The position numbers and the translations under genes were made by a program. A model generated the notes under the pieces. It saw nothing but the letters and a program-made list of their open reading frames with translations. It was not told the DNA's origin and ran no database searches. Source: Bacteriovoracaceae bacterium (GTDB taxonomy: Bacteria; Bdellovibrionota; UBA1018). Taken from it: a stretch of DNA of 64,000 nt. Below, in pieces: positions 8,614 to 10,976 of this stretch; within the stretch, counting starts at the first letter, position 1; every line of letters starts with the position of its first letter. The stretch lies in contig CANFJX010000008.1 of assembly GCA_947447665.1 (NCBI GenBank), positions 69,149 through 133,148 of the forward strand, read 5' to 3'.

Positions 8614-9783
8614 TTGCTGATGCAGTTTGAGTTAATGAGATTCATTTTACTCCTGGCACTGATAGCGCTCTGTTTTCAAAACGGTGTGTCCGCAGCCGTT
8701 CAGCCTCATGCCGTTACCTGGCAGACGCCCAATCCTGGAGATCGAGTCAGAGTCAGGAACAAAATCGAGCGATTCAAGTGGATGATAACCGAAGCATTCA
8801 ACACGTCCAGGGACGACCCCCCAGCCCAAATGGACCGCCAACACTGGTTAGATGCGAGAAATAACCTGAGCGCTATCATTCAAGGGAACTTCCCCAATCC
8901 AAGACTGAATCAGGCCATACGAGAGAGCGCGGCCTACCTCAAGGATCAAAAAATGTGGCCCATGCCTTTTGGAGTATCGCCATCCAATTGGATCAGGCAG
9001 GTCCAAGCTAATATTGAACTCCCGCTCACAGCTAAAATCGAACTTCTTCAAAACGAAGCTTTCTATCAAGACCAGATCCTGGACTTAAGAAATGGTGCCC
9101 TCATTAGGGCAGAAATCCGGCGACTCGGCGGTCTAGGAGATTTCTCCCTCGATGTTCGCCGTACTCACAAACTTTACCGGCAGTACTATAAACTCTTAAA
9201 TAAAATGGTCCAACTCTCTGAACCTGGAGCAACGGCTTTCGCGCCCAAAAATCCCACAGCAGAGCGCTCAACCAAGGATGCGGTTTTAGCCAATCTCTAT
9301 CAGCAAGTCATAGGTATCTCCTGGGATCTCGTTCCGGGGATAGTACCCATTATTCAAGGCCATCCTCAGTATTCTCAAATGAGTGAAAAGTTTAGATCCC
9401 TCGGAGACTCCTATGAAATCGCCGGATTGCTCTGGAGTGGGGTTCCAAATTTGAAAATGAATCAATGGCAAGCAAAGGCTTTTTGTGCTGGCCTGGGTGA
9501 TGGATCGAGACTACCAACAGAGGCCGAGTATCAGGCCCTGCTCGAAACAACGAGAGTAAAGACTGAAGAACCGTGGTACGAACTCAACGATCCACTGAGT
9601 GCGCCGATATTTGAACGATTCATCCTACTCCCTGACATGATTGAGAAGGATTTTTGGTCATCTTCGAGTCACTTCCATTTGTTCCAAGCAAAAGCTAAAA
9701 TCCTCAAACAAGGTTTAGAACATGCGCCTTTTATGTATCACGCAAAACGCCAAGTCCTGGCATGGGTTCGTTGTGTTCATTAA
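8614..9783 (+). CDS. secreted hypothetical protein with a C-terminal FGE/SUMF1-like motif
   Basis: N-terminal signal peptide (MRFILLLALIALCFQNGVSAA). The C-terminal WQAKAFCAGLGDGSRLPTEAEYQALL resembles the A..YC.W.G.RLPTEAEW segment of formylglycine-generating-enzyme domains. Only part of that domain is present. Confidence 0.45.
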   Translation: MLMQFELMRFILLLALIALCFQNGVSAAVQPHAVTWQTPNPGDRVRVRNKIERFKWMITEAFNTSRDDPPAQMDRQHWLDARNNLSAIIQGNFPNPRLNQAIRESAAYLKDQKMWPMPFGVSPSNWIRQVQANIELPLTAKIELLQNEAFYQDQILDLRNGALIRAEIRRLGGLGDFSLDVRRTHKLYRQYYKLLNKMVQLSEPGATAFAPKNPTAERSTKDAVLANLYQQVIGISWDLVPGIVPIIQGHPQYSQMSEKFRSLGDSYEIAGLLWSGVPNLKMNQWQAKAFCAGLGDGSRLPTEAEYQALLETTRVKTEEPWYELNDPLSAPIFERFILLPDMIEKDFWSSSSHFHLFQAKAKILKQGLEHAPFMYHAKRQVLAWVRCVH

Positions 9784-10976
9784 TGAATCCGTGCGCGGCA
9801 AACGGGGCACTTTGGAAGGCACTCTTTATTTTCCATCCACTTCCGGAGACATCCTACATGGAATTTGTGGCGACAAAGCGTAGCTCGAAGGGCCCCCAGC
9901 CGCGGGGTGCTCGGCTCTAAACAGATCGGGCAACTGTCAGATTCGACTAAGCTCATGGGAGGCGAGTCAGCCTCGGGTAGCTCCTCCAGCGAAGTCTTGG
10001 ACGACGACCCCAAGAGGACGGCGTTCAGATCTCTAGCAGAACCCGTGAGTGCTCCGTCATTCACCCAAATCGGGTCCACCTCTGAGTGTGCGTCAAGAGC
10101 TACATCGAACCCGGTTTGATGGTACAGGTGGGCCAAAATCATTAAGAGGAATGGGGCTTCAATGACTCCCGGCACGGCAATTTCATCCAATTTAACTTTG
10201 AGCTGACTCGCAGCCGCGCCTCGGGCAAGGATTTCTGAAGGCGAGGGCCAACAGACTGCAGCTGGGGAGGTCGGGCATGGAAGCAGACTGACAGCTTCCG
10301 CACGAGAAGCCTCAGTAAGGTTAACCAAGGCTGGACAAAAAAGCTCCCGAGGGAAATTGTACAATCCACACAAGAACCCCGCGCCCACGGCAGAACCACA
10401 ACAACTCAAACCTAACGCAGGAGGAGGAATCGATGCACAAAGGAAGCCCACCGAGGCGATTGAAACGGGAACGACTTGATTAGTCAAGCTTTGGCTACGG
10501 AGTTCTCTTTTCACCTTTAGGTCAATCTGCAGAAACGCTTGAAACTCCGGAATCAGTTCAGTAAGCCGAGAAGGAGCGCCGCCCAAGAGGGCATAGTGAA
10601 GCTCTTGAATGAGAGAGTCGGATGCCTGGATTTGCTCCTCGGAGACCTCAGCATCAAGCCCCGCTCCGTACCAAAGTCGGTGCGCTGGCTCCAAGCTGAG
10701 GTAGAACTCTTGAGTGAGGTAAATGTAATCAGGTTTGTAGTCTCGCTGATAAAAAGATGGATCACAGGGCCTGCGGACTTTTCTGCAAACTTGTCCGATT
10801 CTAGGACAGGTGGGATTTTCTAGAGCAGCTCGAGATCGAAGAAATTGCTCAACCCTTTCAAATGACTGGATCGCGGCAGGCGAATGGCTTGCGGCAATGC
10901 CCGAGTTGGAGCCAAGGAGATAGGCGAACCCAATCCAAATTGCTCCTGAAATGAAGTAATGTTTGATTCTCGTCAT
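9780..10976 (-). CDS. secreted/membrane-anchored protein with a C-terminal eukaryotic-type RING-H2 zinc finger (putative E3 ubiquitin ligase-like effector)
   Basis: 398 aa with an N-terminal hydrophobic signal/TM. The last 50 aa are CPICLEPSTPRLGALRATLCRHKFHVGCLRKWMENKECLPKCPVCRARIH. This fits C-x2-C-x15-C-x-H-x2-H-x2-C-x13-C-x2-C, including the conserved FH..C...W and CP.CR of RING-H2 domains. Confidence 0.6.
   Translation of the reverse strand: MTRIKHYFISGAIWIGFAYLLGSNSGIAASHSPAAIQSFERVEQFLRSRAALENPTCPRIGQVCRKVRRPCDPSFYQRDYKPDYIYLTQEFYLSLEPAHRLWYGAGLDAEVSEEQIQASDSLIQELHYALLGGAPSRLTELIPEFQAFLQIDLKVKRELRSQSLTNQVVPVSIASVGFLCASIPPPALGLSCCGSAVGAGFLCGLYNFPRELFCPALVNLTEASRAEAVSLLPCPTSPAAVCWPSPSEILARGAAASQLKVKLDEIAVPGVIEAPFLLMILAHLYHQTGFDVALDAHSEVDPIWVNDGALTGSARDLNAVLLGSSSKTSLEELPEADSPPMSLVESDSCPICLEPSTPRLGALRATLCRHKFHVGCLRKWMENKECLPKCPVCRARIH

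Follow-up and report, generated by a model that had tools for sequence, protein, structure and literature searches.

A RING-H2 finger protein with a predicted signal peptide and membrane hairpin from an uncultured Bdellovibrionota lineage, a putative mimic of eukaryotic ubiquitin ligases

The stretch of DNA analyzed here, referred to as the window, comprises 64,000 nucleotides of contig CANFJX010000008.1 (assembly GCA_947447665.1, positions 69,149 to 133,148 of the forward strand) and contains a gene for a protein, P0001, that ends in a RING-H2 finger resembling those of eukaryotic ubiquitin ligases (E3s). The gene is located at 9780..10976 on the reverse strand, starts with ATG, ends with a stop codon at 9780-9782 and codes for 398 amino acids. 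Its extent was taken from the list of open reading frames, from the same call on independent contigs and from the family alignment; independent gene callers predicted the identical gene on 13 metagenomic contigs, the longest of which is 460 kb. From the N- to the C-terminus, the predicted parts of P0001 are a signal peptide, an orphan helical region, a hydrophobic hairpin, an acidic linker and the RING-H2 finger.

The RING-H2 finger spans residues 349-393 (9798..9932, reverse strand), with the sequence CPICLEPSTPRLGALRATLCRHKFHVGCLRKWMENKECLPKCPVC, and was identified by Pfam, by sequence matches in PDB, by a regular expression, by AlphaFold2 and Foldseek and by its invariance in the family. 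The segment follows the pattern C-x2-C-x15-C-x-H-x2-H-x2-C-x13-C-x2-C, with C349, C352, C368, H370, H373, C376, C390 and C393 as the putative zinc ligands (spacing 2/15/1/2/2/13/2) and with the signature residues F372-H373, W380 and C390-P-V-C-R394. The initial annotation of this DNA had described a RING-H2 consensus at this position, including F-H, W and C-P-x-C-R, and the exact spacing is confirmed here. A more general regular expression for RING-H2 fingers, C-x2-C-x(9-39)-C-x(1-3)-H-x(2-3)-H-x2-C-x(4-48)-C-x2-C, matched a single site in the six-frame translation of the window, which was the RING of P0001, and none of 20,000 shuffled versions of the protein. Both of the Pfam families named in the initial annotation were found above their curated cut-offs, zf-RING_2 (PF13639) with 35.5 bits as compared to a gathering cut-off of 27.3 and zf-C3HC4 with 26.8 as compared to 21, and zf-ANAPC11 was also passed (26.6, cut-off 25). 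The Pfam scan of P0001 found no domain besides the RING.

In a sequence search against PDB, the top matches to P0001 (E <= 0.01) were eukaryotic RING proteins only, with no solved bacterial E3 among them. The solved RING-H2 relatives include RNF38, gp78/AMFR, RNF4, RNF24, Hrd1, Arabidopsis RMR1, RNF126, RLIM, RNF13 and Arkadia, and all eight ligands line up in the alignments to RNF38 and gp78/AMFR. The similarity to RNF38 extends beyond the finger itself: an E-E-L-P motif about 15 residues before the RING (residues 331-334, 9975..9986, reverse strand), which is invariant in all family members, aligns with IEQLP upstream of the RNF38 RING. Directly after the last zinc ligand, R394 (9795..9797, reverse strand) occupies the linchpin position in the alignment to C-P-I-C-R-A of RNF38. 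Residues I351, W380 and P391 correspond to the established contact positions for the ubiquitin-conjugating enzyme (E2) in solved RING-E2 complexes such as c-Cbl-UbcH7 and RNF38-UbcH5B. The linchpin arginine, R454 in RNF38, stabilizes the closed conformation of the ubiquitin-charged E2 (E2~Ub), and an arginine at this position gives the highest ubiquitin-transfer activity (PMC12326332). Thus, P0001 contains all of the E2-contact residues (I351, W380, P391) and the basic linchpin (R394) that are expected of a competent RING E3.

The fold of the C-terminus, on which the initial annotation had let its assignment depend, was predicted with AlphaFold2 from the last 80 residues, using an alignment of 73 RING segments taken from a large homology search. 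The predicted local distance difference test (pLDDT) score was about 90 over residues 349-398, and the model displayed a beta-hairpin followed by a helix. With this model, the top 50 Foldseek matches in PDB were all RING E3 domains, among them APC11, HRD1, TRIM21, RNF125, RNF165, gp78, RNF4, RNF38 and TRAF6, at a root mean square deviation of about 2 A over 51-62 columns. Based on the model, we are confident in predicting that the C-terminus of P0001 folds as a RING-like beta-beta-alpha domain, in which the eight Cys and His residues would bind zinc.

We searched for relatives of the complete protein with a word-indexed search of 5.8 billion proteins and with an exhaustive HMMER search of 1.84 billion representatives (E <= 0.001). 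The former retrieved only P0001 itself and one homolog, P0002, which is 50% identical. The latter gave 999 matches, of which only P0002-P0005 and the fragment P0008, with the full-length cluster mate P0156, match P0001 upstream of the RING. Nearly all matches outside the family cover only positions of about 290-400, and none of them begins before profile position 224. The family is thus very small, with five clusters among the 1.84 billion representatives, all from uncultured, probably freshwater Bdellovibrionota. A word-indexed homolog search with the last 80 residues of P0001 gave no candidates. A scan of a genome collection with a two-sequence family alignment gave nothing, the family genomes not being among the scanned GTDB species representatives, and a metagenome scan gave RING-only matches, one of them on a giant-virus contig, and no further family members.

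Conservation was examined in an alignment of eight full-length family sequences, which are 27-53% identical to P0001. All eight Cys and His ligands, the conservation of which the initial annotation had named as decisive, are kept in the homologs, and they are invariant in 8/8 members together with I351, F372, W380, P391, R394 and E331-E332-L333-P334. Since I351, W380, P391 and R394 are invariant in addition to the ligands, the conservation exceeds what is needed for holding zinc and reaches residues required for the activation of E2~ubiquitin.

The nearest RING relatives outside the family are of mixed origin. Several of them are proteins of eukaryotic appearance in which a transmembrane helix is followed by a linker and a RING-H2 finger, and several are located on eukaryotic or giant-virus contigs. 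One RING-HC protein with a CPICLEP start (locus L031, 9800-10159) is encoded on a 173-kb contig, where the neighbors, a capping-enzyme-like protein, a Gly-rich repeat protein, a thioredoxin and a photolyase, are giant-virus-like in look. Among aquatic protists and their viruses, RING domains of this sub-type are in circulation. Outside the family, the RING most similar to that of P0001 belongs to P0042 (344 amino acids, locus L028, 8001-9035), with 47% identity and an hhalign probability of 98.5%. It is encoded on a bacterial contig that also carries genes for a bacteriophytochrome, ExbBD and threonine synthase.

The N-terminus of P0001 (residues 1-28, 10893..10976, reverse strand), as read from the sequence and the family alignment, looks like a Sec-type signal peptide. 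It contains R3 and K5, a hydrophobic core of 15 residues, Ala at position -1 and Gly/Ser at position -3. A start of this type, with a basic n-region, a hydrophobic core, Ala at -1 and Gly/Ser at -3 (Ile in P0005), is found in all family members. This is consistent with the initial annotation, which had noted an N-terminal signal or transmembrane segment and called the protein secreted. The predicted mature N-terminus carries the motif H-S-P-x-A-x-x-A-F, in which H31, A35 and F39 are invariant and H-S-P (residues 31-33, 10877-10885), immediately after the predicted cleavage site, is replaced by H-A-A in P0156. The position of the motif suggests a sorting or maturation signal; no known motif matches it.

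The region that follows, residues 29-166 (10479..10892, reverse strand), is specific to the family and probably helical, as judged by a low-confidence model, and it ends in a basic flank (K154, K156, R157, R160). Like residues 208-330, it has no relative in Pfam, NCBIfam, PDB or the library of 1.84 billion proteins, and a PDB profile search with the N-terminal region gave nothing significant (best E = 0.15). Residues 167-207 (10356..10478, reverse strand) were delimited by composition and hydropathy as an uncharged hydrophobic stretch in which Gly, Ala and Ser are abundant and a PPP turn lies at the center. The physicochemical character of this segment is shared by all eight members: 0-1 charges per 40-41 positions, a mean Kyte-Doolittle hydropathy of 1.1-1.55 and a central Pro/Gly turn in a hydrophobic stretch of about 40 residues that is preceded by a basic flank. 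We read this segment as a predicted membrane helical hairpin.

The middle region between the hairpin and the E-E-L-P motif (residues 208-330, 9987..10355, reverse strand) is conserved, according to the alignment and charge counts, and comprises a short amphipathic hydrophobic helix (residues 266-287) and an acidic low-complexity linker. The invariant residues are C242, R252, A256, L259, V268, L277 and Y285. Residues 266-287 were considered as a transmembrane helix and rejected, with 1-4 charged residues and a hydrophobic core of only about 12 residues. The middle region had also been described as Cys-rich, and P0001 does contain 10 cysteines, but C242 alone is invariant across the family, so that Cys-richness is not a conserved feature; a metal-binding or disulfide module was rejected on the same grounds.

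The source organism was assigned to an uncultured Bdellovibrionota lineage because the neighboring HrpB helicase shares 74-79% identity with the HrpB proteins of metagenome-assembled genomes (MAGs) labelled Bdellovibrionales, Bdellovibrionia, Bacteriovoracaceae and Oligoflexia, and because of the gene content of the window. The isolate names of related MAGs suggest a freshwater-lake habitat. A chlamydial origin, first suspected from a Lys/Ala-rich histone-like gene and the Inc-like hairpin, was rejected since the window encodes chemotaxis proteins, a rhodopsin, a Bd3614-like deaminase and the HrpB with 74-79% identity to Bdellovibrionota. The histone-like gene (12141-12479, reverse strand) codes for a protein of 112 amino acids with a histone H1-like, Lys/Ala-rich C-terminal tail, AKKPAAKKKPAAKKKSKK, and has no match in Pfam, NCBIfam or PADLOC. 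The deaminase domain protein (48845-49759, forward strand; 108 bits) belongs to a family named after a Bdellovibrio gene.

The window also encodes a methyl-accepting chemotaxis protein and PrkA, and at 29296-33861 (forward strand) one protein of 1521 amino acids fuses a CheB methylesterase, a CheR methyltransferase, several PAS domains, a histidine kinase and a receiver. The segment 54745-59889 contains a rhodopsin gene (59116-59889, reverse strand) beside genes for a beta-carotene 15,15'-dioxygenase and a carotenoid synthesis protein, in addition to a fatty-acid desaturase-like gene and glycosyltransferases, and represents a complete-looking retinal/rhodopsin cluster in a Bdellovibrionota-like genome. 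A protein of 214 amino acids (36426-37070, forward strand) matched Pfam NMD3 with 33.3 bits as compared to a cut-off of 24.9, and also showed a weak match to multihaem MtrC-like proteins. NMD3 is the family of the eukaryotic ribosome-export adaptor, and the match is probably a Cys-rich zinc-ribbon resemblance rather than a true NMD3.

Several observations bear on the history of the RING gene. Its GC content is 0.529 as compared to 0.487 +/- 0.033 for the genes of the window and thus close to theirs, so that the gene is not a recent import. One MAG, GCA_947380295.1 (the source of locus L009), carries two RING paralogs, P0005 and P0156, and P0156, P0003 and P0004, from three species, share a conserved locus with the gene order tatA, RING gene, phosphoribosyltransferase. 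Because of the two paralogs in one MAG and the tatA locus shared by three species, the family has been vertically inherited and has duplicated within this Bdellovibrionota clade. The RING gene of the window and that of P0002 are located at other, non-syntenic positions. In the relatives with HrpB proteins of 74-79% identity, neither the RING gene nor the 389-residue neighbor described below, the glycosyltransferase gene or the radical SAM gene is found beside HrpB. In two species, a further gene of the tatA locus (L026, 7083-8471; L022, 7100-8503), which precedes the RING gene by three genes, matched the transglutaminase elicitor family with 74 bits; this family was described from Phytophthora.

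Among the neighboring genes, a glycosyltransferase with a DXD motif and an N-terminal signal peptide is encoded 4 kb from the RING gene (4949..6067, forward strand; 372-375 amino acids depending on the gene call), as supported by Pfam and PDB matches. It matched Pfam TcdA_TcdB with 59.3 bits and Gly_transf_sug with 45.2 bits. Among solved structures, its best match was the Legionella effector SetA (E = 1.5e-17); next came TpeL, a glycosyltransferase domain listed as RTX toxin, TcdB, the lethal toxin TcsL, TcdA and other glycosylating toxins, and nearly all of these relatives are annotated as toxins or effectors. The SetA/TcdB-type relatives for which the substrate is known act on eukaryotic proteins. 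As contextual evidence, this is therefore a second gene of a eukaryote-targeting type in the window.

The convergent neighbor of the RING gene, with which it overlaps by 4 bp, codes for a signal-peptide protein of 389 amino acids (8614..9783, forward strand) with a faint Lcl_C / FGE-sulfatase-like C-terminus in Pfam. Two paralogs, 39% and 29% identical, are encoded near P0005 (L023, 777-2309 and 7911-8759), and there is a weak match near P0156 in the same sister MAG (L026, 20934-21173), which hints at a recurrent association with RING-family genes. For one of the paralogs, a match to an IBR-like zinc finger narrowly missed the Pfam cut-off (23.0 compared to 24.3 bits).

In the sister MAG (GCA_947380295.1, contig CANCQK010000004.1), the gene for a WipA-like phosphatase (131 bits) is located directly downstream of P0005, followed by two PI3/PI4-kinase-like genes with 32.9 bits (cut-off 27.1) and 25.2 bits (below the cut-off). 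All three proteins have Sec signals or a lipobox, and together their genes (L023, 11401-16232) make up a small eukaryote-directed island of Legionella-like enzymes within a Bdellovibrionota MAG. The proposal of the initial annotation that the organism manipulates a eukaryote is strengthened by the SetA/TcdB-like glycosyltransferase and by the WipA-like and PI3/PI4-kinase-like genes, although it is not proven.

Taken together, we favor, with modest confidence, the interpretation that P0001, a protein of uncultured Bdellovibrionota, is exported, inserts into membranes and mimics a RING-H2 ubiquitin ligase of eukaryotes. The lineage that carries the RING genes probably manipulates the ubiquitin system of eukaryotes that serve as its host or prey; the E3 activity of P0001, its route of delivery and its host are what we infer from the features described above. 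The RING-H2 finger and the E-E-L-P motif, of the RNF38 / RLIM / ATL type, were probably acquired from a eukaryote and joined to an N-terminal region specific to the lineage, after which the gene would have been inherited and duplicated within the bacterial clade.

The signal peptide would carry the unfolded protein over the inner membrane via Sec, and P0001 would then exit the cell and reach a eukaryotic host or prey cell. There, judging by its conserved physicochemical properties, the uncharged hairpin of 40 residues may anchor the protein in a membrane of the host; the N-terminal region would then lie on the same side as the RING, which would be in the host cytosol. In this reducing and zinc-containing compartment, the C-terminal domain would fold as a two-zinc cross-brace RING, bind a host E2~ubiquitin via I351, W380 and P391 and activate it with the linchpin R394. 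The orphan N-terminal region may select the substrate.

A broader and more doubtful suggestion, which we put forward tentatively, is that this Bdellovibrionota clade attacks or inhabits eukaryotic cells by means of a Sec-dependent arsenal instead of a type III or type IV system. The arsenal would include hairpin-anchored RING-H2 ligases, the SetA/TcdB-like glycosyltransferase, the WipA-like phosphatase and the PI3/PI4-kinase-like enzymes. If so, the RING family would represent a new class of membrane-inserting E3 effectors with a delivery route not yet described for such proteins. More generally, the Bdellovibrionota RING genes point to an interaction with eukaryotes that is unrecognized for the phylum. 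RING-H2 domains recognizable by plain profiles are uncommon in bacteria and, where studied, mark proteins that act on the host ubiquitin system. With its signal peptide, hairpin and RING, P0001 could serve as a compact model for studying how export via Sec can be combined with an action on ubiquitination. Should the E3 prediction fail, P0001 would be a rare example of a bacterial envelope that uses a eukaryote-type RING for another purpose.

Several observations weigh against the interpretation of P0001 as a ubiquitin ligase mimic. Delivery is its weakest link, because the Sec signal and the hairpin leave the RING in the periplasm by default and no injection system is seen: genes for type III, IV and VI secretion were found neither in the 64-kb window nor within about 9-10 kb beyond each of its ends (about 84 kb in total) nor at the family loci. 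Effectors active in the host cytosol do not usually depend on a Sec signal peptide, and if the signal peptide is cleaved, the simplest topology for a protein with a hairpin has the RING in the oxidizing periplasm. Bdellovibrionota are known for preying on bacteria, and bacterial prey, to our knowledge, lack ubiquitin. The gene content of the window, with chemotaxis proteins, a rhodopsin and many sensors, is that of a free-living, motile cell, and the three orthologs at the tatA locus lie among housekeeping genes and not in an island. The PI3/PI4-kinase matches are limited to about 40 residues of the catalytic loop, and one of the two is below the Pfam cut-off. Finally, the full-length AlphaFold2 prediction from a two-sequence alignment had a mean pLDDT of 33, and the N-terminal region and the hairpin have no usable model.

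Many of these observations would be accommodated if the RING were a zinc-stabilized protein-protein interaction module that acts in the bacterium's own envelope or in bacterial prey and has no link to ubiquitin. P0001 would then be an inner-membrane, periplasm-facing factor of predatory or cell-envelope machinery. Such a role agrees with the Sec-type signal peptide and hairpin, which would leave the entire mature protein, the RING included, in the periplasm, with the location of three orthologs next to tatA among housekeeping and lipid-synthesis genes, and with a phylum that preys on bacteria. There is also precedent: prokaryotic RING-like treble-clef domains that function in membrane-protein folding, stability and proteolysis, independently of ubiquitin, have been described (Burroughs et al. 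2011, as summarized in PMC4506424). However, the strict invariance of I351, W380, P391 and the linchpin R394 is hard to explain without an E2 partner, and eight Cys and His ligands would be unlikely to stay reduced in an oxidizing periplasm. In addition, the domains most closely related to it are canonical RING-H2 fingers of eukaryotic E3s, and the neighboring genes include those of a eukaryote-targeting type. We therefore regard a role in the envelope or in bacterial prey as unlikely, although it is the principal alternative to a ubiquitin ligase mimic.

P0001 might also reach a eukaryotic cell and act there as a decoy, binding host E2s or RING partners on a membrane without catalyzing transfer, or, as a variant, the RING might mainly target the protein for its own turnover. 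The evidence for delivery and E2 binding applies equally to a decoy and to an active ligase, and the N-terminal region contains no recognizable substrate-binding domain. It is the invariance of the linchpin arginine, which promotes catalysis over mere binding, that makes a decoy quite improbable.

A function as the E3 of an endogenous prokaryotic ubiquitin-like system, such as the archaeal cascades of E1, E2 and small RING proteins or the bacterial operons with ubiquitin-like proteins, is very improbable. Such cascades exist in uncultured archaea (PMC5654768), and systems of this kind are predicted for some bacteria (Burroughs et al. 2011, cited in PMC4506424). However, genes for E1 (ThiF), E2 (UQ_con), ubiquitin-like and JAB/Rpn11 proteins were found neither in the window nor at loci L001, L022, L023, L026 and L005-L008, the five family loci included, and a signal peptide and a membrane hairpin are foreign to these cytosolic systems. 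No PADLOC defense model matched, and a reading as a defense system was rejected for this reason.

Finally, an origin of the gene from eukaryotic DNA that was mis-binned or chimerically assembled into a bacterial contig, although in line with a domain typical of eukaryotes and with the eukaryotic or giant-virus contigs of several of its nearest RING relatives, is effectively refuted, because the same bacterial context is recovered repeatedly (the identical gene with identical bacterial neighbors on the 13 contigs, from several independent assemblies), the gene overlaps a bacterial neighbor, has no introns and is close to the window genes in composition, and its paralogs and orthologs are found in conserved bacterial synteny.

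Compared to known systems, the RING of P0001 is most similar to the eukaryotic RING-H2 E3s RNF38, RLIM, Arkadia, gp78, Hrd1 and the ATL-RMR-RNF13 group, with which it shares the ligand pattern and spacing, F-H, W and C-P-x-C-R as well as the upstream (I/E)-x-L-P motif, the predicted beta-beta-alpha fold and the linchpin arginine. Unlike these, P0001 is bacterially encoded, and its N-terminal 330 residues have no homolog beyond the five-cluster family. The order of a hydrophobic membrane segment (hairpin 167-207), an acidic linker (with E-E-L-P at 331-334) and a C-terminal RING-H2 (349-393) resembles that of ATL, RMR and RNF13. The membrane element of P0001 is, however, a predicted uncharged hairpin of 40 residues rather than a single transmembrane helix or a PA domain with a transmembrane helix, and there is no homology to E3s of this type outside the RING (PA domain, GLD region).

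Within bacteria, P0042 shares with P0001 a signal peptide-like N-terminus and a RING-H2 finger at the extreme C-terminus, but its N-terminal part consists of three unrelated tandem repeats of about 60 residues, and it has neither the hydrophobic hairpin nor the E-E-L-P motif. Since P0042 is located on another bacterial contig, secreted bacterial RING-H2 proteins are not confined to one lineage. Prokaryotic RING-like fingers have been surveyed by Burroughs et al. 2011 (cited in PMC4506424). Unlike the small-RING operons of the Caldiarchaeum type, neither the P0001 locus nor those of the family have E1-like, E2-like, ubiquitin-like or JAB/Rpn11 neighbors.

The predicted hairpin is reminiscent of the chlamydial Inc proteins, in which a bilobed hydrophobic segment forms a hairpin in a host-derived membrane with both flanks exposed to the host cytosol. 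P0001 likewise has a bilobed uncharged hydrophobic segment with a central turn, and its length of 40-41 residues falls within the Inc criterion of 40-60. Inc proteins are type III substrates without a Sec signal, whereas P0001 has a Sec-type signal, no sequence homology to them and a non-chlamydial origin.

Canonical RING proteins in bacteria include CAHE_p0026 of Cardinium hertigii (PMC3486910) and the inhibitor of apoptosis proteins (IAPs) with RING domains of 'Ca. Endonucleobacter' (PMC11521996), both of which have been interpreted as eukaryotic acquisitions that are directed against the host. P0001 resembles these in having a canonical RING in a bacterium. Cardinium and Endonucleobacter live obligately inside the cells of known hosts, as symbionts or parasites, whereas the organism encoding P0001 looks free-living and motile, and the Endonucleobacter IAPs are whole host genes (BIR plus RING), whereas only the RING end of P0001 is eukaryote-like.

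Bacterial imitation of RING/U-box E3 ligases is already well established. The Legionella RING-type effectors Lpg2370 and MavM, the U-box effector LubX and RavN imitate RING/U-box E3s and use host E2s (PMC7542358), and like these effectors and NleG of E. coli, P0001 joins a eukaryote-like E3 domain to a bacterial-specific region. There is no homology to a characterized bacterial E3 effector, as the PDB matches are eukaryotic only and full-length homologs are confined to five uncharacterized clusters, and we found no paper that links Bdellovibrionota with RING or ubiquitin effectors. The Legionella and NleG E3 effectors lack Sec signal peptides, being substrates of type IV or type III systems, and mostly have U-box or strongly diverged RING-like folds that are recognized only by structure or profile-profile comparison. 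P0001, in contrast, carries a Sec-type signal and a textbook zinc RING-H2 finger that plain Pfam suffices to detect, and its source is a member of the Bdellovibrionota. Thus, what is new here as compared to these systems is the phylum, the orphan N-terminal region, the combination of a Sec signal with a predicted hairpin, and a hint that the clade has further genes directed at eukaryotes.

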